26,476 nucleotides of DNA from positions 1 through 26,476 of IMG/VR virus record IMGVR_UViG_3300022876_000113; one strand, given 5' to 3'. Positions 4,563-24,789 of this stretch are shown here, piece by piece (the stretch's first letter is position 1; each line of letters opens with the position of its first letter). Below the pieces are notes generated by a model. That model ran no database searches and was not told the DNA's origin. It was given only the letters and a program-made list of their open reading frames with translations. The position numbers and the translations under genes were made by a program. This stretch comes from a virus (Duplodnaviria; Caudoviricetes).

Positions 4563-5357
4563 TTAAGCGGCCGGAGCGATCACGCCGCCAGGGGATGAAA
4601 GAAGCATCCGGTCCAAGAACGGAAGCGCAGAGGGATCACGCTCTCGGAAGTACTTATGCGAGCGGTTCGGCAGCCAAACTTCGTTGAAGTGAAGGCGGAA
4701 CTCGTGGAGGTATCCAATGGGATACAGGATTGCATCAACCACGCGTCCGTCTTCGTAGTGGTGCTTATAGCGGGGCAGCGAATGGGTATCCACCCCCTTT
4801 GATCGCATCCACTTGGCGAACATCTGGCCCTGCGAAATGTCCGGCACCATGTTTTCGGGCAGCGTGTAGCCTTTGGACTCCAACGGCGCGATCAGGTTCA
4901 AAGTAAGCTCGTTGAGCACCGAAAAGTGCGTGTAGGGCACCCGGTCGCGATTGGCCAAATACCGCTGGATGTGATGCGGGAGCGGAGCCGCAGGTGCGCC
5001 GCCAGGTTGCTTCCCGGAGAGCCATTCACGCACCCATCGGCTAACAGCAACCGCAAATTTCGGTGAAAGCCACTGGGCCAAGTGGATCGCCAAGTCAGGA
5101 TGCACCCAAGTTCCTTGGGGCTCGCTCCCACCCTTAACTGATTGAATCAATTGCGATATGGGAATTCCCATATCGGTCGAAAGCTCTTCCAGAAAAGCTA
5201 CCGTGCTGGAGTTGCGCCTATAGTCTGCGAAGAGCTTGCCCACTGCCTGACACATGGCGGTGGCATTGATGTAGCCATCCACCTTCCGCTGCTCGACAAG
5301 AGTGTTGTCGACCTGACGATGGATCAGTTGCAGAGAAAGCTGTTTACTGCTGTGCAT
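4563..5357 (-). CDS. KilA-N domain protein with BstA-like C-terminal domain (putative abortive infection protein)
   Basis: KilA-N motifs DGYINATAMC and GTWVHPDLAIHLAQWLSPKF; C-terminal FSVLNE, VPDISQG, YxHxY, YP..L.EFR..F...WLP; ATG 5357 with AAGGA SD; 264 aa. KilA-N call is firm, BstA call is from recall. Confidence 0.8.
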   Translation of the reverse strand: MHSSKQLSLQLIHRQVDNTLVEQRKVDGYINATAMCQAVGKLFADYRRNSSTVAFLEELSTDMGIPISQLIQSVKGGSEPQGTWVHPDLAIHLAQWLSPKFAVAVSRWVREWLSGKQPGGAPAAPLPHHIQRYLANRDRVPYTHFSVLNELTLNLIAPLESKGYTLPENMVPDISQGQMFAKWMRSKGVDTHSLPRYKHHYEDGRVVDAILYPIGYLHEFRLHFNEVWLPNRSHKYFRERDPSALPFLDRMLLSSPGGVIAPAA

Positions 5358-5437
5358 AGCGAATTTCCTTTTAGGAAATACACGGCACGGCGTCACAAAA
5401 AATCTGTCATGGGCTCACAAAGCTGACCGTTGTCGCA

Positions 5438-7811: not shown

Positions 7812-10004
7812 CTATGACTGAATTTTGAGGTTGAAGGCGACGCACCAGTTGTGCATCGGATACGGCTTATCGACGAGTGCCGCGATGTTCGCTTCCGGAT
7901 ACTGACCGCTTCCTGCCTGATACACGTATCGATCAGGTGCAACGAAGCTATCGCTATCACGGAGACATCCATTGCCATCGTGGTACGTCTTGTCGGCGTA
8001 GCGGAGGTATGCAACTCCGACCAGGTCACGCGAAAGGGTCAGCTCCACGATCGTGTCGAAAACAATCCGAACGCCACTGACTGGAACGACGCCAATTGAA
8101 TCGCGCACCGTGAAGCCCTTATCGGCGAAATCGGTCGGCGTGTACGACAGATACGGCTTGTCGAACGCAAGCGGCGGCTCTGGCACATGGAAGTCGATGC
8201 TGATCTTCCTGCCCGCCACCGCGACATTGCGAGGAGACAACGGCCTCCAACCTTGACGAAGCTCCAGAACCTTGTAGGCCACTTTTGCAGCCATGTTGGC
8301 CCACCATCGATAGCCATTCGAGTCCAAGTGGCCGTTCGCAGTGGGGCTGGTGTGCTTGTCCGTGTAGGGATACACCGGCCCGACCAGGTAGACGTCGCTG
8401 TTCTCTTCGCTGAATTCAAGCTGGGCTTGGCCAACCGCCAATGCCGTGTCCATCCCATTGCCGTCGGAGGTGAAACTTGCACCGGTCTGGTACATCAGCA
8501 TGACCGGTGGCAGAGGCTGCGCAGCCACACCGGCCGCAACATCTACCTTGAAGTCCGACCAAAGCTGAGCCAGTGCAGCCTTGTGGGCCTGCCTGGTGCT
8601 GCTGGGGTAGTCGTTCTCTCCCTGCAGCCACACAAGCGCCCCGACGCCATAGGTTTTCCCCTCGGATGAGGCATTCGCCTTGGCAGCCTGTGAGTGCCCC
8701 ACCAGGACGTTCCAGATGTTCGGGCTCGCTCCCTTTGTCAGCTGTGCAATCGTTCGCCCACCAACCCCGCTGCTGCTGGCCACGAACGAAATGGAATCAT
8801 CCATCACGCCCTTCCGCAGGTTGTGTAGCTTCTTCAGAGAGTTGACCAGGCCCTCGGCGACCGTCTCGCCAAATGCTCCATTCCCCGGAGGAAGCGCAGC
8901 CACCTCGGCGTCTGTAAGCACGGCCATGCTCGTGCTCATCACATTGGCGACAAGCGGCTGGAACGCGCTGTTGCCGCCCACAGGGGCGAACGACGCTGAC
9001 CCAATGCTGGCCTGCCTGACCGAACCACCCACCATCACGTTGTTGTATGGCTGCGTTTTACTGAGGGCCGGCCACCCCTCAGTGCCATTGCTGAGGCTCT
9101 GGCCATATACGGCAAAGTGCGTGTAGTCGTAGCCTACCGGGGTGGATACGCTGTTTATCTGGGACGCTATACCGCGCGCAGCGTCCAGGTTGGACGCGTT
9201 GCGCGCTCCGTACAGCGATGCATCGTCACTCGCCGAGACCACGCCTTCAGGGGTCACCAGCTCGACGACATACCCATCGTCATCCTGGATCGAGAGCGAG
9301 GTATTCAACCCGACGGAAGAGGCATCCCGGACCAATCCGGCAACACCATTGGGGTCAACTACGTCGACGAAATACCCATCGGCGTCCACGAGGCTGAATG
9401 CACCAGTAGTTCCGATCAGACTTGAATTCGCGAGCATCACCGTCTTGAGGTCGATGATTCCTTCACTCAGCCCCTTGTCCGTGTATCCATCCTCGTCCGC
9501 GAAGCTGATCTCATAAGGAACATCGAGAGCCACCGTTCGAACAGTGTTGTCGAGTTTCGTGTCCAGAGTCTCGACTTCGCTACGGTCAGCCTTATCAAGC
9601 AGGATGTCTCCGCGCAGCCACTCCCATCCTTGTGCCGCAACAGACCTGCGCACGAACCTGCCATAGTTAGGAACGACCTGCCCTCCCGGCTTAATCGGAT
9701 CGACGTGCGAACCAGAGTCGGTTGTCATTGAAATATCGGCCTGTGCGCCGATTGGCTGGCTAATCCCAGGCTCAACCGAGATTAGTCGCGCCCACGTCGA
9801 TTCTCCGATTGCCCCGCCAGCTTGACCCGCCTTAAGCGCTTCCACATCTGCAGGAAGACCGGAAGCGTCGATCTGACCATCCACGAAAACTCCCAGCACA
9901 GACGCCGGCGCCTGCGCGTTGCGCCCGGCCTCAATAACCGCAAGTTGTGTGCTGCTCCCGATCTGACCAATGGCCGGATACTGGCTGAGCTCTTTCTCTG
10001 CCAC
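7812..10004 (-). CDS. Tail spike/fibre-like protein with SGNH (sialate O-acetylesterase-type) domain
   Basis: 730 aa, GTG start with GGAAAGGGG SD; YGQSL, GVGG, WLQGEND and GHL motifs. Confidence 0.75.
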   Translation of the reverse strand: MAEKELSQYPAIGQIGSSTQLAVIEAGRNAQAPASVLGVFVDGQIDASGLPADVEALKAGQAGGAIGESTWARLISVEPGISQPIGAQADISMTTDSGSHVDPIKPGGQVVPNYGRFVRRSVAAQGWEWLRGDILLDKADRSEVETLDTKLDNTVRTVALDVPYEISFADEDGYTDKGLSEGIIDLKTVMLANSSLIGTTGAFSLVDADGYFVDVVDPNGVAGLVRDASSVGLNTSLSIQDDDGYVVELVTPEGVVSASDDASLYGARNASNLDAARGIASQINSVSTPVGYDYTHFAVYGQSLSNGTEGWPALSKTQPYNNVMVGGSVRQASIGSASFAPVGGNSAFQPLVANVMSTSMAVLTDAEVAALPPGNGAFGETVAEGLVNSLKKLHNLRKGVMDDSISFVASSSGVGGRTIAQLTKGASPNIWNVLVGHSQAAKANASSEGKTYGVGALVWLQGENDYPSSTRQAHKAALAQLWSDFKVDVAAGVAAQPLPPVMLMYQTGASFTSDGNGMDTALAVGQAQLEFSEENSDVYLVGPVYPYTDKHTSPTANGHLDSNGYRWWANMAAKVAYKVLELRQGWRPLSPRNVAVAGRKISIDFHVPEPPLAFDKPYLSYTPTDFADKGFTVRDSIGVVPVSGVRIVFDTIVELTLSRDLVGVAYLRYADKTYHDGNGCLRDSDSFVAPDRYVYQAGSGQYPEANIAALVDKPYPMHNWCVAFNLKIQS

Positions 10005-10007
10005 GGT

Positions 10008-10170
10008 TTACCCCTTTCCGATGAGTTGATAGCCGTCATGGCCAAGAAGCAGCGCTCCGTCGTCGCCGACCAGCAGCTGCAGGTAGTTGGTGCTGTCGAA
10101 TTCGAACGGCTCGTCCGTTTCGTAGGTGCGGAACTCCAGGGCCACGCCGGCGGCCGACGGCACCCACTGA
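10008..10170 (-). pseudogene. 3' remnant of a baseplate-region gene (DUF2612-like by position)
   Basis: Start-less frame QWVPSAAGVALEFRTYETDEPFEFDS...LIGKG-stop ending 3 bp before the spike start. Confidence 0.5.
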
Positions 10171-10339
10171 CCGGCACGGCGAAAGCACCGTGCGTGTCGA
10201 TGCCGGCGGCCTTCGCATCGTAGATCGCTTGGGCAATCTCCACGTCCAGCCCGCCTTCGGCGATGACATGAACCGAGTGCGGCGGCCGGCGTGACATATC
10301 CGTGTAGTCGCCGGTGTTCTCGTAGGCAACCACGTTGGT
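10171..10339 (-). pseudogene. Internal fragment of a baseplate J-like gene
   Basis: TNVVAYENTGDYTDMSRRPPHSVHVIAEGGLDVEIAQAIYDAKAAGIDTHG resembles baseplate J/gp47 proteins. Confidence 0.75.
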
Positions 10340-11149
10340 CATGCGGTTGAGGTCGGCGGCAGTGTGCTTCTCAGGCCACAGGGCCTCGCCGTCCTCCGAC
10401 AGCGCCTCGAAGCAGACGTGCTCCCACACCTCACCATTGCCACCCGGTCGCGGTTCTTCGCCGGGCTTGCGGCCCAGGAGCCAGCCGGCCAGGTCCCGCT
10501 CGTGCAGGCGCTGCATGATCACGATGATCGGCGTGTCCGCGCTGTTCACGCGGGACTGCAGCGTGTTGTTGAACCAGTCCAGCACGCCCTGGCGGACCGT
10601 GTCGCTGTCGGCCTCGCCCGGCTTGTGCGGGTCATCGATGATGATCGCGCCGCCGAAGCCGGGCCGAGCCTTGCCCGCGCCGAAGCCGGTCACAGTGCCC
10701 TCGGCACCGGTGGCATAGACCACCCCGCCCTTGGTTGTCCGCCAGTCGCCCTTGGCGCTGCTGTCCTTGCGCAGCTCGACCTCGGGGAAGATCTCCCCGT
10801 AGACCTCGTGCTGCACCAGCTCGCGGGTATTGGCGCTGTTGTTCAGGGCCAGTGGTGCGGCATAGCTGATGTGGATGAACTCGGAGTCGGGCACCTTGCC
10901 CAGGCACCAGGACATCCAGTTCACGACCGCCAGCTCGGTCTTCGAATACCGCGGCGGCAGGTTGATCACCAGGCGCTTGCACTCGCCCCGATAGACCCGG
11001 TCCAAGGCCGCGCACAGAGGGGCATGGTGCTTGGCCCGCATCCACTGGAAGCCCTTCTTCCGCAGGAACGTGTAGCGGCTGTAGAAGTAGAAGTCCTCCC
11101 GCGCCAGCTCGGCCGCAACCAGCTTTTGCTGAGCGGTCAGCTCGCCCAC
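10340..11149 (-). pseudogene. terL: Terminase large subunit, ATPase domain only (nuclease domain deleted)
   Basis: Walker A INLPPRYSKT, Walker B IIIDDP, IMQRLH; similarity stops after LWPEKHTAADLNRM. Confidence 0.9.
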
Positions 11150-13683: not shown

Positions 13684-14319
13684 ATGCTCAAGATTTTCGT
13701 GGACACTTGCGTCTGGAGACACTGGCTTTCGCTGCGGAGCAATAGCTCTCGGTTACAGGAGCCTGAGCTCACCGACGCGGGAGCTTTCGCTGAGATTATC
13801 GCGGCCGTCAATGATCAACGCCTTGCTGCCAACTTGATCTATGACCAGGGCGTAATCATCGAATTGGGTCCGGTCCGGGTTGAAGAGATCTCTGCCTTGC
13901 TCTCACGCCAAGTTGAGAGAGTTCCGATCCCACAGAGCCGATGCGATGGAAGATACCGTTACGACGGAAGCTTGCTGGCGGGAGGAGAATTCGGAGGCTC
14001 CCTTGATGCAATGCTTAACGCGGACGGTCGACGTCATGAGGAACTTCTTCACGCTGCATTCGTCAAGTCGGGAGAGGCTGGCACACCACTCTTTGAGCAA
14101 AAAGCCCGGATAGCAGAGTTCGACGTAGAGCATCTTGAGGCTGCCTTAGAGGCTGGCGCAGACATTTTCATGACCACTGACAGAGCAACCATCCTAGATA
14201 AGCTACCAAAATTGGCCAATCTTCCTACGGCCTCACACGCAGTCAAACGTGCTGCGCAGATTTTGCGCTCGCCTTCGCAGTTCGTCGAAGAAACGGATCT
14301 GACTCGCAGTACAAATTGA
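13684..14319 (+). CDS. PIN-like domain protein (putative RNase), counter-oriented moron
   Basis: N-terminal KIFVDTCVW and C-terminal DVEHLEAALEAGADIFMTTD acidic motifs; lower GC. Confidence 0.7.
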   Translation: MLKIFVDTCVWRHWLSLRSNSSRLQEPELTDAGAFAEIIAAVNDQRLAANLIYDQGVIIELGPVRVEEISALLSRQVERVPIPQSRCDGRYRYDGSLLAGGEFGGSLDAMLNADGRRHEELLHAAFVKSGEAGTPLFEQKARIAEFDVEHLEAALEAGADIFMTTDRATILDKLPKLANLPTASHAVKRAAQILRSPSQFVEETDLTRSTN

Positions 14320-14347
14320 ATGAAATATCCCCGCTAGGTGGCGGGGC
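14319..14347 (-). terminator. tR'-like terminator after the late promoter
   Basis: Minus strand CCCCGC-CACCTA-GCGGGG followed by ATATTTCATT. Confidence 0.5.
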
Positions 14348-14387
14348 TGATGAGTTTGGCCGGCGGCCAAGTCTCGCGATGATGGGA

Positions 14388-14417
14388 AATCTACCGGCTC
14401 CGACGTGGAGTCAGCAA
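14388..14417 (-). promoter_or_regulatory. Putative late promoter (pR'-like)
   Basis: TTGCTG-18 bp-TAGATT just downstream of the Q-like gene; GTGGAG/CTCCAC inverted repeat flanks the -35. Confidence 0.5.
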
Positions 14418-14434
14418 CTCCACATTTTCGAGAG

Positions 14435-15148
14435 CTACGCTGCGCGGGGCTCTTCGTCCCGGTCCCGATTGCTTAATGCGCGGGAGAGCTGCTTTGCAGC
14501 ACGCTCACTGGACTGGTGAAGCTCGCCCAGCAGCCATTCGAAGACGCCCTTCCATCGCTTCGGATAGTCGGACGGGTCACAGCCCATTGCCATTGCTCTG
14601 CGGCGATCGGGCAGCGGCTCGATACCAGTGTTCCTACACTCCGGGCATCCCCTGTCAGTGACGATGCCAGTGCCCCTGCAGTTCGGGCAGCGGTTGCCGC
14701 TGGCCAGCTCCAGCACCACGGCGTCGACCATGCGGGAAAGGTGCTGATAGGTATTCTTCGGCCAGGCCTGCGCCCGCGCCAGCACCACCGCGGCCTCCCG
14801 ATCCCGAAGGATCCGTCTCTGGGCGTCGGACATGCTGCGCCGGCTGAGGCTGACCATCTCCCTGGAAAAGCTCAAGTCATCCTCGGCCTCCGCCAGCGCC
14901 CGTGCGCGGCGGGTGAACTCCGGGCGCACGATTGCGAGCACGGCCTCGGCCAGCTTGCCGCGATGCCGGATGGCACCGTCAGGCAAATACACCGCCTCCA
15001 TCACTTCCCGTCCAAGCCCGGCCGGCACCATACCCAGCGCGGCGGCGATATCGGACGTGGTCAGGCTGGGAGCGCCCCCACCCTGCCCTACGTCGAAGCG
15101 CACGGTCTGTGCGTTCAGTCGGGCCAGCATCTCGCGGCGGTCAACCAT
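14435..15148 (-). CDS. Late antiterminator Q-like protein
   Basis: CPNCRGTG...CPECRNTG zinc finger; last gene of nin region, before lysis cassette. Confidence 0.75.
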   Translation of the reverse strand: MVDRREMLARLNAQTVRFDVGQGGGAPSLTTSDIAAALGMVPAGLGREVMEAVYLPDGAIRHRGKLAEAVLAIVRPEFTRRARALAEAEDDLSFSREMVSLSRRSMSDAQRRILRDREAAVVLARAQAWPKNTYQHLSRMVDAVVLELASGNRCPNCRGTGIVTDRGCPECRNTGIEPLPDRRRAMAMGCDPSDYPKRWKGVFEWLLGELHQSSERAAKQLSRALSNRDRDEEPRAA

Positions 15149-15813: not shown

Positions 15814-16118
15814 GCGGCCACCTGGATCACGCCCATCTGCCACAGGGCCAGCATGGTGCGCTCGTGCCCGCGCAGCCAGATCTCAGCCTTCTCCTCGCGG
15901 GTGAAGCGCCTTCCCTGGTCCAGCTCGCGATGGCAACTCCGGCAAGCGCTGGCCACGAAGCAGTCGTGCGCCTTAAGGCTGCCGCCCTTCCCGTGCCGGC
16001 TCTGGTTGCTGTGCGCTGGCTCACCGAAGCCACCTTCACAACAGCCGTCGATCTGAAGGGTGCATTCGACCTGGTAAACGGCGTCCAGCAGCGCACGGTC
16101 GCGGTAGTTGTCGTGCAT
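15810..16118 (-). CDS. DUF1364/YbcO-like zinc-binding putative nuclease
   Basis: CTLQIDGCC, AHSN..HGKG..KAHD, ACRSCH..LD. Confidence 0.75.
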   Translation of the reverse strand: MHDNYRDRALLDAVYQVECTLQIDGCCEGGFGEPAHSNQSRHGKGGSLKAHDCFVASACRSCHRELDQGRRFTREEKAEIWLRGHERTMLALWQMGVIQVAA

Positions 16119-16168
16119 CACCACCCCCCCCAGCCTACAATCGCACTACGAACCACAGGGGATTTGAT

Positions 16169-16801
16169 GTGCGACGAATTAATGGTTGGAATGTAGTTTG
16201 GCTGTTGATCGCGGCACTGTGTGCCTTTGCGGCGTCCTTCTGGATCGGTTTTGATCCCATCAATGTAATGGTGGACAAAGAAGCCGGCCAGGTATGGCCT
16301 GCATGGGTACAGGCACTCGGCAGTATTGCAGCGATAGTCGCAGCCGCTTTGATTGCTTATTTGCAAAGACGCTCGGAAAACCTTGAGAAGAAAAACGAAA
16401 GCCTCGCCCGAGAAAGGAGCATGGCTTCTTTTCTTTATAAGGATTTCGCTCGCTGGAGAGAAAAGGCTGCAGATGTAATGGGGCCTGTCGTCATGTTCGG
16501 GGTTGACAACTACGCAATACCGCAAAACATCTACGACCATATGCGTGACTTGCACATCATCGGACCAACAGCGTCGGAAGCCGCGACTAAGGCGATAGGC
16601 GCGTCCTTGGTTGCGCGGACGGTGGGTCGAAGTGGTAATGACGACACGAAGCGCTACCTGAAAGATCAGGATTCCGTCGACCAGTACAACACGCAGCTGA
16701 CAATCATCCGCGAGAGCTGTTCGAAAGTTCTCGATCACTTCGACGAGCTTCTTGGCATCCGTCATCAGCCAAATGATCACGCGGCCTCCGCAAAGTCGTG
16801 A
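16169..16801 (+). CDS. Counter-oriented membrane protein (two N-terminal TMs), moron
   Basis: 210 aa, lower GC; hydrophobic VVWLLIAALCAFAASFWIGF and WPAWVQALGSIAAIVAAALIAYL; TACAAT at 16136-16141. Confidence 0.75.
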   Translation: MRRINGWNVVWLLIAALCAFAASFWIGFDPINVMVDKEAGQVWPAWVQALGSIAAIVAAALIAYLQRRSENLEKKNESLARERSMASFLYKDFARWREKAADVMGPVVMFGVDNYAIPQNIYDHMRDLHIIGPTASEAATKAIGASLVARTVGRSGNDDTKRYLKDQDSVDQYNTQLTIIRESCSKVLDHFDELLGIRHQPNDHAASAKS

Positions 16802-17181
16802 GGATTGAATCCCAGCCCTAGCAGAACCGTGTCCGACCAGCGCACCGGCCGCGCGCGCAAACCCTGCTCTTCCGGGTGGTCGCCGATCTGCACCAGGACT
16901 GTGATGGCATCGCACGCGAGCGACTTCGTCAGCTTCAGGCTGGATCCGCCGAGCATGATGTGACCCGGCGCGCCCTGGCCCCGGTCGATCGCCGGCATCA
17001 GGCGCCATCCCAGCATCGTGCCGGCCACCATGTGGCGCCAGTCGTCCTTGGTCAGGCGCTGGCCGTGCCAGGACAGGCCAGCGGCCAGGTCGCCGCAGAT
17101 GGCGTTGAGCATGCGCTGTTGCTTGGGGGTCATCATCCCCTCGCCGCGCTGTTGCCAGTCTTCGGGGCAGATGCCACTCAA
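16777..17181 (-). CDS. NinB-like recombination protein
   Basis: QQRMLNAICGDLA, WHGQRLTKDDWRHM, MLGGSSLKL. Confidence 0.7.
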   Translation of the reverse strand: MSGICPEDWQQRGEGMMTPKQQRMLNAICGDLAAGLSWHGQRLTKDDWRHMVAGTMLGWRLMPAIDRGQGAPGHIMLGGSSLKLTKSLACDAITVLVQIGDHPEEQGLRARPVRWSDTVLLGLGFNPHDFAEAA

Positions 17182-17561: not shown

Positions 17562-17749
17562 GCGGCCACTCCCAATCTGATTTCGTAGTCCCGCTGATCC
17601 CAGCCGGCCTCCCATTCCTTTCGCTGCAGTCGACCGGGCTCTCCCATCTCGAACAGCGGTACTGCGCTTCGCGGCTTGTGGGCCTCGCGCATGTAGCGGC
17701 CGGCCTGACGCGCCCGGCGCAGCAGTTCCTGATCGACCTCAGGCTGCAT
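17558..17749 (-). CDS. Hypothetical protein (63 aa)
   Basis: Overlaps both neighbours; GGAGG SD; WEAGW motif. Confidence 0.7.
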   Translation of the reverse strand: MQPEVDQELLRRARQAGRYMREAHKPRSAVPLFEMGEPGRLQRKEWEAGWDQRDYEIRLGVAA

Positions 17750-18131
17750 GGCGCACCTCCGGTGTCTCTTCGACGGCGGCGGCCGGCTCGTCCGCGGCGA
17801 CCGCCACGTTGAGCTCGCGCGCGATGTCGTCCATGTGCTTGGCGACCTGCTCGCGCGTCGCCGGCACTGCCTCGCGCACCTGGTGCTCGATCTCGGCCAC
17901 CGGTGCCGCCGGCAGCTCGCCGCCGCGCATCACGAATTCCTTTGCCCGGTTGTAGGCGGCCTGCAGCAGCTTGTCGGCCTTCTCGGCGCTCGCCAGCCGG
18001 TAGCGGTGGCCGTCCAGGTACTGCCACACCAGCCGGGTGAAGCCGTCCTGCTGGCCCGCATCGGCACGCACAGCGTCGAACGGCGGGATGCCCAGGCACA
18101 TCATCCGGAACTGAGGCAGCGTCGGCGGCCA
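17739..18131 (-). pseudogene. 3' remnant of replication protein P-like gene
   Basis: Begins at WPPTLPQFRMMC; sequence upstream belongs to the opposite-strand operon. Confidence 0.7.
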
Positions 18132-18171
18132 TCGCCTTCGGCCACCGGCTGTTTGGGTTGGAGTGCTGATC

Positions 18172-18534
18172 ATGGCCTCCGTCATGGAACAGCATCCCGA
18201 GGCTGAGGTCCGGCGCTTGCGCAAGAACCTCAACACTCTGCAGGGCAACCTGCGCAACACCGGCCTCAACATGCCTGGTGCTGACACCGCCTACCGCGCG
18301 GCCATCTTTGTCGGCGCTGATGCCGAGCAGGCATGGGAAGCGGCCCGCCGCCACGAGCTGGTGATGCTGGGCTTTGCAGACGAGATCGAAGAGCCGAAAG
18401 GCCTCAGCTTCCCGTCTCCCCGGAACTCGATCGACCAACGCCGCGCGGCACGCCAGCGGCAGATCGATAGCGTGCGCGCCTTGGTCAACCCGTTCTCGCT
18501 GGCCGCCCCGCTCAGCCTGGAGCGTGCTGCATGA
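18172..18534 (+). CDS. Hypothetical protein (120 aa)
   Basis: GGAG SD, ATGA overlap with next gene. Confidence 0.7.
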   Translation: MASVMEQHPEAEVRRLRKNLNTLQGNLRNTGLNMPGADTAYRAAIFVGADAEQAWEAARRHELVMLGFADEIEEPKGLSFPSPRNSIDQRRAARQRQIDSVRALVNPFSLAAPLSLERAA

Positions 18535-19984: not shown

Positions 19985-20146
19985 ATGAAGATCGTGAACC
20001 TGATTCAGGGCACCCCTGAATGGCACGCCCACCGCGCCCAGCACTTCAATGCCAGCGACGCGCCGGCGATGCTCGGGGCATCCACCAACCAGATCCGCGT
20101 CCTCCGAGGCGCAGCCAACGGCCAGGGCTACCCGCTCGCCGCCTGA
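19985..20146 (+). pseudogene. YqaJ-like exonuclease remnant (53 codons)
   Basis: QGTPEWHAHR...FNASDAPAMLG N-terminus only; catalytic PD-(D/E)XK core absent. Confidence 0.8.
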
Positions 20147-21451: not shown

Positions 21452-22387
21452 ATGGCATCTGAAAACTACAAGGCACCTTCCGTTACCCAATCCGCAGAGC
21501 TGGCCGAGCAGCAGGGGGTGAACGGCTGGGATATCGCCGAGAAGGTGCGCGCCGACTTGGATCGGCAGTCATGCCCTGACGCCTACATGCGCATCGCAGT
21601 CGAGTCGGTCGTGAAGCACCTCGCCGCAACTGGCAAGCAGAAGGTAGGCGAGGTGCAGGGGGAGGATGCTGTGGGCGACCAGTTGTTGGATGAGCTGCGA
21701 GACGTTGAGGACTATTTCAACGACGTGGAGCCGAATCCGATTCATCTGGCAACGGTGCAGGCGGCTATCTCCGCCCTCGCCGCAACTGGCAAGCAGCAGG
21801 GTGGCGAGGTGCGGGGGGATGCGCGGGCGCAGTTTGAGGCGTGGGCTTTGAGACGGGGTCTCAGCCTGGTTCGCGATCAGCACTACTCGGGCCGCCAATA
21901 CTACGCTTACAACGATGTTGAACTGGCGTTTGAAGCGTACCAAGCCGCCCTCGCCGCCCGCCAGCCGGGGGCGCAGGTGCCGGTCGAGCTGGCTTGTGTT
22001 GCTGAGACCTTGGCGCACGGCGAAGGGCTGTGGATGACGTGTTCGGGGTGCCACGAAAGCAATGAGGGCGTGCCGACAGGTCCATACAGCCAGATCATGC
22101 AGTGCCACCTCGGCAACGGCTGCGACGAATGCGGCGGGATCGGAGCCACCTGGGATACCACTGACTACCAGCAGATGGCGGATGGAATGTCGAAATCTCT
22201 CGCCGCCCCGCCCGCGCAGGGCATCGACTTGGGGCAGTTCCGCGAGGCGGTTGAGGCGCAGCACGCGGCCCTGATGAGTTCGTGGTGTGGTGACCCTGAG
22301 ACCAAGGACGCAGCAGATCAGCAGCGTGACCGACTGCTGGCCCTGATCGACCAGCGCGATGCAGCGCCGGGGGTGGGCAATGGCTGA
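21452..22387 (+). CDS. Modular hypothetical protein with repeated linkers and a CxxC-CxxC module
   Basis: 311 aa; LAATGKQxxGEVxG twice; CSGC...CDECGG. Confidence 0.75.
   Translation: MASENYKAPSVTQSAELAEQQGVNGWDIAEKVRADLDRQSCPDAYMRIAVESVVKHLAATGKQKVGEVQGEDAVGDQLLDELRDVEDYFNDVEPNPIHLATVQAAISALAATGKQQGGEVRGDARAQFEAWALRRGLSLVRDQHYSGRQYYAYNDVELAFEAYQAALAARQPGAQVPVELACVAETLAHGEGLWMTCSGCHESNEGVPTGPYSQIMQCHLGNGCDECGGIGATWDTTDYQQMADGMSKSLAAPPAQGIDLGQFREAVEAQHAALMSSWCGDPETKDAADQQRDRLLALIDQRDAAPGVGNG
21619..21817 (+). repeat. Imperfect ~43-bp direct repeat (21619 and 21775) with 22-bp exact core
   Basis: CCTCGCCGCAACTGGCAAGCAG at 21619-21640 and 21775-21796. Confidence 0.9.
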
Positions 22388-22397
22388 CCGCTGCTGG

Positions 22398-22691
22398 TCA
22401 ACCGATCGGACGGCCCCAAATGGACTTGACGCCAACGGGCGCATGTCGAGGCGCATCGCTTCCAGCAAGCGTCTTTGCAGTCTCAAGAGCCTCGGCCAGA
22501 GCCGCAGCTTCATCTATGAATTCGAAGCCTGTGTATCCCGCGTTGTCCTCGTCGTCTCCCCGCGTGACCTTGACGTTTTCAATGGTCGCACCGTCCGGCC
22601 AAATATTGAGATCGATGACGTACTCGGCATCCAGCACTTTTCCGGTGTGACTAACAAAATTGCTACCCGCGTTGCTGTCCAGATTCTTCAT
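22398..22691 (-). CDS. Counter-oriented small acidic protein, moron (alternative start 22781)
   Basis: Lower GC insert; minus-strand TTGGCT-17 bp-TAATTT at 22758-22730 favours ATG 22691 (97 aa). Confidence 0.6.
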   Translation of the reverse strand: MKNLDSNAGSNFVSHTGKVLDAEYVIDLNIWPDGATIENVKVTRGDDEDNAGYTGFEFIDEAAALAEALETAKTLAGSDAPRHAPVGVKSIWGRPIG

Positions 22692-22779
22692 TTCGCTGAT
22701 CTCGTTGAGATGGATTCCCTTGTGGAACCAAATTACCTCAGCTGCAAGGCGAAGCCAAATCAATTGCAAGGGACTATCC

Positions 22780-24789
22780 ATGGCTGACGGCTCCCGCTCC
22801 TTCAACTTCCCCCTGCCGCAGCGCTCGCGCCTGCGCGCCGGTGAGATCGTGGTCGATCTGTTCGCCGGCGGCGGCGGCGCCAGCGAGGCGCTGAAGCAGG
22901 CGCTGGGCCAAGACCCGGCGCTCGCCTACAACCACGACGCGCTGGCGATCGGCATGCACGCGGCGAACCACCCGCTCACCAGCCACCACCGCGAGGACAT
23001 CTGGCATGCCGATCCGCGTGTGGACGTGGCCGGCCGCGCGATCGGATGGTTCCATGCCTCGCCGGACTGCACGCACTTCAGCCAGGCCAAGGGCGGCCAG
23101 CCGCGCAGCCGGAAGACACGTGCTCTGTCGTGGGTGGTCCTGAAGTGGATCGGCATGCTGCTGCGCGCCGACTTGGTCAACGGCACCAATACGGCCCCAC
23201 GCATCTTCTCGATGGAGAACGTGTGGCAGATCCTGACCTGGGGCCCGCTGATCGCCAAGCGCTGCAAGACCACCGGTCGCGTCCTGAAGATGGACGGCAC
23301 CGTCGCAGCGCGCGGCGAGCGCGTGCCGGTCGAGCATCAGCAACTGGTGCCGGACAAGAGCCGCACCGGCCGCACTTGGCGGCAGTTCGTCGCCTCGCTG
23401 CGTGCGCTGGGCTACGTGGTCGAGTGGAGAAAGCTGGTGGCGAGCGACTACGGCGCCGGCACCAGCCGGGAACGCTTGTTCCTGCTCGGCCGCCGCGACG
23501 GCGAGCCGATCGTGTGGCCGGCGGCAAGCCACGGCACCGCGCCGGGCCAGAAGCCGCGCGTATCCGCCGCCGACTGTCTGGACTTCAGCATCCCTTGCCC
23601 GTCCATCTTCGGGCGCAAGCGGCCGCTGGCCGACGCCACCATGCGCCGCATCGCCAAGGGCACCAGGCGCCACGTCATCGACTCTGCGGACCCGTTCATT
23701 GTGCCGGTGACCAACCAGGGTGCCGACCGCGTCCATGGCGTGCACGAGCCACTGCGCACAATCACCGCTGCCCATCGCGGCGAGCTGATGCTGGCCATGC
23801 CCGAGCTTGCCCCGTTCATTGCCGAGCACGCGAACAGCAGCCATTCGCTGGGCAGCATGCGAGCCGACGAGCCACTGCGTACCGTCTGCGCCGGGGTGAA
23901 GGGCGGCCACTTCTCGGTCGTCACGCCGATCCTTGCTGGCGTCGGCGGCCGCGCCGGCCAGTCGGAACCACGCTCGGGCGCTGACCCTCTGTACACGATG
24001 ACCGCGAAGGCGGACACCGCGCTGGTGGCGCCGCACCTGGTCAAGTTCCGGGGCGACAGCATCGGAACACCTGCCACCGAACCTGTGCCGACGATCACCT
24101 CAGGTGCTGGTGCTGCGCGTCCGGCAGGCGCAGCGCACGCCTTGGGCGTAGCTGCCGCCTCGCTGGTCACACTGCGGAGGAACATGGTCGGCGCCGATGC
24201 TCGCACGCCGCTGGCTACGGTAGCCGCTCAGGCAGAACACCATGCGCTGTCAACGGCCTTCATGGTGCAAGCCGCACACGGCGAAGGACGCCCGGGAGGT
24301 GTCCAGCGCTGGGGCTCTGGCAGCAAGGATGCACGCGATCCGGTGGGCACGATCACCGCCAGCGGAAACGGGGGCCATGCCGTCGCCGAGGCAGAGCTGG
24401 CTGAGCTTTCGCCCGAGCACCAGGAAGGCGCGCTGCGGGTCGCCGCCTTCCTGATCAAGTACTACGGCACCGGCTCCAACGTGCCCAGCCTGGCCGACCC
24501 CGCCGACACCATCACCACGAAAGACCGGCTGGCGCTGGTCACGGTGGTGATCAAGGGCACGCCTTACGTCATCGTGGATATCGGCCTTCGCATGCTGAAG
24601 CCGCACGAGCTCTACCGCGCGCAGGGCTTCCCGGCGGGCTACATCATCGATCGCACGGCCAACGGCACCCCGCTGACTACCAGCGCGGCCGTGCGCATGG
24701 TTGGCAACAGCGTCAGCCCGCCGCCGCTGCGCGCCTTGGCCGAGGCCAACCTGGACCCGGTGGCGATGCAGCTGGCGGAGGCCGCCTGA
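22780..24789 (+). CDS. Orphan C5 cytosine DNA methyltransferase (669 aa)
   Basis: DLFAGGGG (I), ASPDC (IV), MENV (VI), RERLF (VIII), RML..ELYRAQGFP (IX), GNSV (X). Confidence 0.93.
   Translation: MADGSRSFNFPLPQRSRLRAGEIVVDLFAGGGGASEALKQALGQDPALAYNHDALAIGMHAANHPLTSHHREDIWHADPRVDVAGRAIGWFHASPDCTHFSQAKGGQPRSRKTRALSWVVLKWIGMLLRADLVNGTNTAPRIFSMENVWQILTWGPLIAKRCKTTGRVLKMDGTVAARGERVPVEHQQLVPDKSRTGRTWRQFVASLRALGYVVEWRKLVASDYGAGTSRERLFLLGRRDGEPIVWPAASHGTAPGQKPRVSAADCLDFSIPCPSIFGRKRPLADATMRRIAKGTRRHVIDSADPFIVPVTNQGADRVHGVHEPLRTITAAHRGELMLAMPELAPFIAEHANSSHSLGSMRADEPLRTVCAGVKGGHFSVVTPILAGVGGRAGQSEPRSGADPLYTMTAKADTALVAPHLVKFRGDSIGTPATEPVPTITSGAGAARPAGAAHALGVAAASLVTLRRNMVGADARTPLATVAAQAEHHALSTAFMVQAAHGEGRPGGVQRWGSGSKDARDPVGTITASGNGGHAVAEAELAELSPEHQEGALRVAAFLIKYYGTGSNVPSLADPADTITTKDRLALVTVVIKGTPYVIVDIGLRMLKPHELYRAQGFPAGYIIDRTANGTPLTTSAAVRMVGNSVSPPPLRALAEANLDPVAMQLAEAA

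Follow-up and report, generated by a model that had tools for sequence, protein, structure and literature searches.

A backward accessory gene crossed by a stop-free operon-strand frame in the early-left arm of a lambdoid-type prophage

Results

The DNA analyzed here (positions 1 to 26,476 of IMG/VR virus record IMGVR_UViG_3300022876_000113, all 26,476 nucleotides of which are called the window below) is a lambdoid-type prophage record, and the element of interest is a 400-bp insert in its plus-strand early arm that carries a gene in the opposite orientation. The arm is ordered RecT-like gene, KTSC, RdgC, a 311-aa gene, the insert, a C5 cytosine methyltransferase, a 65-aa open reading frame (ORF), excisionase and integrase. 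As an earlier note made from the sequence had pointed out, the 9-mer ATGGCTGAC stands at 22380 and 22780; these are its only 2 matches in the window (0.37 expected; 3 of 100 shuffles reach 2). The 311-aa upstream gene (21452..22387, plus strand; scans of PHROG and Pfam gave no match) ends with a TGA inside the first ATGGCTGA, and the second copy of the 9-mer supplies the ATG of the methyltransferase gene, which is identified by a domain match (PF00145), lies at 22780..24789 of the plus strand and is followed by the 65-aa ORF, excisionase and integrase. Between the two copies a plus-strand frame, here called the bridge (22380..22787), stays open for 135 codons until it is closed by the TGA in the second ATGGCTGAC copy, so that the same 8-nt overlap is found at each of its ends, as the note had also described.

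The acidic minus-strand ORF recorded there is likewise present, ending at 22398 in the same codon register as the bridge, and it is referred to below as the cargo gene (22398..22691, minus strand). The GC content of the insert is 0.52 at 22500-22799 compared with 0.63-0.72 in the surroundings, and that of the cargo lies about 10 points under that of the operon. The same cassette was found in a metagenome locus (L050) at 88% identity over 408 nt with both frames intact; there it follows another upstream gene, the breakpoint lying at the linker described below. The start of the cargo gene is most likely the ATG at 22691, predicting a protein of 97 aa instead of the longer versions of 127 or 135 aa, because the N-terminal extension is absent from 5 of the 6 other homologs and because all 8 differences from L050 upstream of 22691 fall on codon positions 1-2 of the minus frame and none on the third. 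Upstream of this start lies a putative sigma-70 promoter, TTGGCT-17-TAATTT (22730..22758, minus strand), whose counterpart in L050 is TTGGCA-17-TAGCTT; the promoter proposed in the note stands as a loose match recognized by hand, and a consensus promoter scan returned 0 sites for it. A promoter motif shared among cargo genes was set aside as unsupported, the loose motif being present in 3 of 20 compared with 1.2 expected. A scan of 22200-23000 gave 0 terminator-like sites; the cargo stop is followed by a hairpin that has no U-run. The SD-like (Shine-Dalgarno-like) sequence AAGGGA for the methyltransferase (22768..22773, plus strand) lies within the last codons of the bridge, and similar purine runs occur in other alleles. 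A single CCATGG palindrome (22778-22783) contains both the ATG of the methyltransferase and, for the minus ORF, an upstream ATG in its frame, and a similar back-to-back start is seen in one further family (L094).

Comparison with L050 tells which of the two strands encodes a protein under selection. Half of the substitutions within the cargo (20 of 40) fall on its third codon position, and the uncorrected ratio of nonsynonymous to synonymous substitution (dN/dS) is 0.40 for the cargo, 2.6 for the bridge where it runs over the cargo and 1.1, based on few changes, for its promoter part. In 23 non-independent pairs drawn from several cargo families, cargo dN/dS is 0.08-0.45 in 22, the remaining pair being a probable mis-call, and bridge dN/dS in the same pairs is 0.44-2.34 with one value undefined. 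The cargo protein has 6 homologs at 70-96% identity, and a protein collection holds full-length open bridge alleles at 86% (P0022) and 74% (P0023), one of them nearly the same as that of L050. The minus-strand gene is the real gene, under purifying selection, and the bridge peptide is unselected; the bridge frame is held open without amino-acid constraint.

An open frame on one strand of one gene can arise by chance. For this locus the probability of an open in-frame bridge is 0.24 x 0.23 x 1/3 = 0.018, or about 2%, where 0.24 is the chance that the cargo part is open under control codon use, 0.23 that of the promoter part in shuffles, and 1/3 that of a frame match. The single locus is by itself weak evidence; the related prophages make the case, and make it strongly. 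In anchored loci and 29 prophage records, genes were called by an in-house script that is blind to opposite-strand stops, clustered at 70% identity and compared with controls matched for GC at third codon positions (GC3), the main set being backward genes enclosed by left-arm anchors. In an in-register gene on the backward strand the codons TTA, CTA and TCA place stops in the bridge, and none of the 11 Leu and Ser codons of the present cargo is one of these. The 20 left-arm clusters contain 1 such codon in 3134, compared with 52.9 expected, and 19 of the 20 have none, compared with 3.65 clusters expected. By codon, the left-arm cargos use TCA 1 time in 102, CTA 0 in 248 and TTA 0 in 64, versus 17.6, 7.7 and 12.1% in controls; for ACA, GCA, CCA, GGA and CGA, use is close to that of controls or higher. 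Stops persist in the two remaining operon-strand frames (2.1 and 3.8%; controls, 2.9 and 3.7%). With a second anchor set, 24 of 25 clusters were free of the three codons (1 versus 68.5 expected; 10 clusters new), and of 15 new clusters from 41 held-out loci 14 were free of them (1 versus 49.5 expected), two of the 15 being possible mis-calls.

The ends of the bridges follow the same plan. The bridge stop overlaps the next start in 19 of 20 clusters of the main set and 11 of 15 held-out clusters, and 17 of 19 spanning bridges begin at a start that overlaps the upstream stop. One family (L091/L106) is bridged out of register. The bridge is still open in pairs whose nucleotide identity has fallen to 63-64% and which differ by about 33 synonymous changes over 75 codons. 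Isolated low-GC genes outside the arm retain the three codons, for example the gene at 13684-14319 of the window, whose 6 such codons leave it with no in-register bridge, and eight low-GC sense genes within arms have them in the same frame at about half the control rate (15 in 2103 codons), far above zero. A test of promoter-side stops over all clusters was dropped as circular, and two candidate counter-examples with a stop three codons past the linker (L118 and L147) were set aside, L118 adjoining a lysis module in a different context. Selection keeps one operon-strand frame open over the left-arm backward genes, and the bridge exceeds what codon register would give by chance, a rule supported in the related prophages. 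Open coupled frames, which the earlier note expected in other inserts, are thus found in nearly all left-arm clusters, and its proposal of a general rule holds to that extent: the design recurs in the left arm of relatives, and the other antisense moron of the window has the same design with an unrelated cargo. The rule is not universal, as shown by 2 broken bridges and by the right arm (8 versus 11.3), both considered in the Discussion.

The 9-mer itself belongs to a recurrent linker (22351..22388, plus strand) consisting of an SD-like G-run followed by ATGGCTGA, at which both upstream genes and downstream cassettes are exchanged. Its core (22370-22387) was matched in 97 viral stretches, 70 of them of the arm type, where it leads into 50 different N-termini. 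This methyltransferase start was located in 48 viral loci. In 45 of them a frame lying upstream is open for 50 codons or more and closes with that same 8-nt overlap, the upstream genes being widely different, and 4 of the 48 have variant linkers at the methyltransferase. One locus (L055) joins the exact linker straight to the methyltransferase and is an empty-site allele, and contigs from DNA runs (X12, X16) join different upstream DNA at 22351. The empty-site and alternative-insert alleles that the note had called for were therefore both found, the latter as many alternative cassettes. Because the linker precedes about 50 different cassettes, the repeat is a standard operon junction, general to the operon and not specific to the insertion; the suggestion that it is a duplication made by insertion finds no clear support. 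For the 9-mer, a recurrent stop/start junction in an array of exchangeable parts is a better reading than a duplicated target site, and exchange of cassettes at a linker already present accounts for the findings equally well. ORFs of 453-539 aa coupled to the methyltransferase start were also seen upstream of that gene in three loci (L001, L028, L036), with a C-terminus that by eye we take to be reverse-transcriptase-like.

Other Features of the Cargo and the Window

The cargo protein matched no Pfam family at cut-off (the best being DUF6894, E 0.003) and no PHROG family, and the bridge ORF likewise matched neither collection. PADLOC models gave 0 matches for this cargo and 1 weak match (E 0.0024) among 20 cargo proteins. 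Its AlphaFold model, of low confidence (predicted local distance difference test score 51), has beta strands plus one helix, and a Foldseek search of the PDB with this model returned nothing at E 0.001. In the Atlas it lies near unnamed clusters at 0.87-0.88 and near DUF6566 at 0.82, the last being a lead only. A wide profile search returned 5 proteins, no relative was confirmed in viral contigs or plasmids, and the cargo was present in 0 of 40 related records; weak matches were obtained to one genome locus (L052) and one metagenome locus (L051), and L049 is the window's own record. Members of the cargo-homolog cluster are named from Stenotrophomonas maltophilia, S. geniculata and S. riyadhensis, and the host of the prophage is therefore likely Stenotrophomonas. 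From its position, an accessory or exclusion activity expressed in the lysogen might be guessed for the cargo. A large family of backward cargos, 180-260 aa long with an N-terminal hydrophobic segment, was seen in L045, L076, L087, L092, L125, L191 and others; those scanned have no Pfam or PHROG match, L045 has none in a cultured-phage collection, and several members share a short module on the start and promoter side. Some bridges (L160/L301, L157) form a fusion with the first part of a genuine operon gene family (MADQLL...), and there the gene caller had taken the bridge in place of the cargo.

The second, unrelated bridged case in the window (16118..16801) lies in the right arm, where a plus-strand cargo (16169/16268-16801) follows ninB (the upstream neighbor matches NinB). 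An open minus frame runs across this cargo and has an overlap at each end; the cargo has 0 TTA, CTA or TCA in 210 codons. The prophage looks heavily deleted, the terminase large subunit being matched in its N-terminal part only, directly beside a tail-fibre gene (window 9785-11149 / 7812-10004, 17739-18172), and no repressor or replication genes were recognized between the two early arms of the window. The low-GC gene at 13684-14319 (plus strand) is a 211-aa moron between Q and the endolysin gene with no Pfam or PHROG match, presumably PIN-like as judged by eye. A BstA-like KilA-N abortive-infection gene lies at 4563-5396 on the minus strand (phrog_6287, E 2e-61), and a 53-aa ORF after RecT (19985-20146), which looks truncated, is taken by eye to resemble the start of a YqaJ-type exonuclease. 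In 4 soil RNA runs, contig coverage lies mainly at 14000-14700, 16160-16870 and 22170-22810, and the 13684-14319 moron is covered in all 4; these runs were picked for containing the 22380 insert, their contigs show neither strand nor level and the template may be DNA, and they were not used as evidence. No contig in the runs compared joins across the insert.

Discussion

The 400 bp are probably an exchangeable cassette that holds a real backward accessory gene and whose operon-strand frame is kept stop-free by selection, likely because ribosomes must cross it if the early-left message, with methyltransferase, excisionase and integrase downstream, is to stay expressed. The best reading of the substitution pattern is that selection maintains the translatability of the bridge and not the bridge protein, likely against Rho polarity or the loss of coupling. 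The bridge would be a translated frame: ribosomes finishing the upstream gene would restart on the ATG of the linker, cross the insert and end on the start of the next gene, while the cargo would be expressed in the lysogen from its own promoter, and cassettes would be swapped by recombination at the recurrent stop/start linker.

The preferred cause, though one given a little less than an even chance, is that the crossing ribosomes shield a C-rich antisense strand on which Rho would otherwise be prone to end transcription. The operon strand over cargos is C-rich, with a skew of +0.11 compared with 0.00 +/- 0.06 in 285 sense genes, and +0.09 in this insert. Uncovered Rho utilization (Rut) sites are described as causing polarity on downstream genes (PMC12360218), and such polarity would hinder induction, because the arm ends in excisionase and integrase. 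That bridge translation serves to hand ribosomes on to the next gene is possible and distinctly less probable, and that it strips a duplex formed with the cargo mRNA is improbable.

Four other explanations of the open frame were weighed. The simplest is that the bridge is a shadow ORF, GC-rich codon use making TTA, CTA and TCA rare and the overlaps being inherited chance. In-register shadows are indeed common in this DNA, one of 314 codons running over the upstream gene, and at this locus alone the open cargo and promoter parts are each unsurprising (p 0.24 and p 0.23). GC3-matched controls, however, use the three codons at 0.6-2.4% of codons, a rate from which the near absence in the main and held-out sets departs by some fifty codons each, and other A-ending codons are not depleted to a like degree; the shadow ORF is accordingly refuted for the cargo set, is improbable rather than refuted for this single cassette, and is the least credible of the four. 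True dual coding, with both strands encoding functional proteins, is hardly more probable. It would account for the start and the SD-like run of the bridge and for its alleles that are open over the full length, and active antisense overlapping genes are reported from a Pseudomonas phage (PMC9936078), yet purifying selection on both peptides is not what the substitutions give: bridge dN/dS is about 1 or above, also in the promoter part, which is free of cargo codons. Homologs of the bridge occur only within this cassette (2 matches among 9 candidates), and bridges over unrelated cargos are mutually dissimilar.

The cargos might instead have arisen de novo antisense to former operon genes, the bridge being a relic of the old gene. 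This is unlikely, although it would suit the finding that 19 other cargo proteins have no Pfam match (0 of 19 at E 0.01) and that the present cargo has sub-cutoff matches only; nearly all cargos, moreover, are in codon register, and it is in this frame that a second gene is said to originate most easily (PMC6884476). A relic should decay, yet the pairs at 63-64% identity stay open; the only called gene that any bridge resembles is itself probably another bridge, and the low GC of the cargos relative to the operon also speaks against it. Descent from an operon gene could in any case explain the origin of the frame and not its maintenance. Slightly better placed, and still doubtful, is transposon-like insertion of the cassette with a 9-bp target duplication, which would explain the exact 9-mer at both ends of the insert and the empty joint of linker and methyltransferase in L055. 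The same 8-9-mer opens dozens of operon genes unrelated to the cassette, neither ORF of the insert matches a transposase or recombinase family in PHROG or Pfam, and in L050 the upstream gene has been swapped at the same linker, all of which is at odds with a duplication made by the insert.

Several observations weigh against selection for a translated bridge as proposed here. The methyltransferase start has an SD-like sequence of its own, so that coupling is possibly unneeded. GTA is also somewhat low in left-arm cargos (8.4 versus 13.1%). Premature operon-strand stops, one in each, are present in the cargo genes of L153 and L177, which come from a looser survey, lack the second anchor and lie outside the anchored counts; a stop is also held by the held-out cluster L367 and by L119, a probable mis-call. 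Right-arm backward genes show no clear depletion, 4 of 9 clusters having zero and 8 codons being observed versus 11.3 expected (P 0.20). Clusters below 70% identity are not fully independent, and because many of them share one membrane-anchored superfamily the Poisson P values are overstated; several unrelated cargo families still show the codon pattern. End coupling is partly built into the anchors, and the gene calls are those of the in-house script.

A wider proposal is given somewhat better than an even chance: that in lambdoid prophages of Stenotrophomonas the early-left arm is an integrase-free array of cassettes, exchanged at a stop/start linker common to them, into which backward cargo is admitted, or in which it is kept, only when recoded to a 58-codon alphabet (no TTA, CTA or TCA), a meaningless translated bridge carrying ribosomes across. 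Translation of the bridge would then serve for antitermination in cis and would also screen the genes that a temperate phage is able to take up. If this is so, phage operons keep reading frames for translation alone, and promoter-bearing foreign genes can lie backward in an operon ending in excisionase and integrase without polarity. The absence of TTA, CTA and TCA would be a simple signature for a large pool of uncharacterized accessory genes, for which gene callers can report the bridge instead of the real gene.

Comparison with Known Systems

Lambdoid morons are accessory low-GC genes between conserved neighbors that are absent or replaced in relatives and likely have their own promoter. 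The cassette resembles them in its insertion between conserved neighbors, with an empty site in L055 and alternative cassettes elsewhere, and in its base composition unlike that of the flanks. Morons are independent units with promoter and terminator, and an open operon-strand frame falls outside that description. Translational coupling offers a comparison alongside Rho polarity. For their early genes, lambdoid phages are said to rely on antitermination complexes, and here no N-like antiterminator family was matched among the 20 operon-side genes scanned. Rho polarity, in which untranslated C-rich RNA silences downstream genes (PMC12360218), is the preferred candidate for the selective force.

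Among overlapping genes, a genome-wide preprint reports avoidance of antiparallel stops without purifying selection on the peptide, and its authors speculate that translation plays a role; it is a survey whose text treats no phage, operon, coupling or Rho, and it gives no operon context or mechanism. The antisense overlapping genes olg1 and olg2 of P. aeruginosa are reportedly protein-coding on both strands. The gene 10/olg1 pair of phage Fc02 (PMC9936078) is like the present case a long opposite-strand overlap in the early operon of a temperate phage; that pair is presented as dual protein-coding, whereas here the bridge peptide is without constraint. A description of bridged antisense phage genes was not found in the literature consulted (mostly open papers).

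A close parallel is with the ambigrammatic narnaviruses (PMC6884476, PMC8316113), which share with the present prophages a reverse frame that is codon-aligned, free of stops and conserved in its openness, here across diverged members, and for which the authors suggest that translation per se matters, ribosomes covering the RNA. Narnaviruses are eukaryotic RNA viruses whose reverse frame, as described there, lies over one RNA-dependent RNA polymerase (RdRp) that is conserved; here, by contrast, no RNA virus with an RdRp beneath the frame is involved, and a DNA prophage with integrase, excisionase, terminase and lysis genes (domain scans of the window) has many unrelated accessory genes, each bridged. 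A further difference from the narnavirus reverse frame in those accounts is that stop/start overlaps make the bridge part of a polycistronic operon. The bridge would work like the narnavirus reverse ORF and is no member of that group; if the reading given here is true, it is a bacterial and directly testable counterpart. The locus is a good example of a little-described design rule, for which the comparative support is strong.

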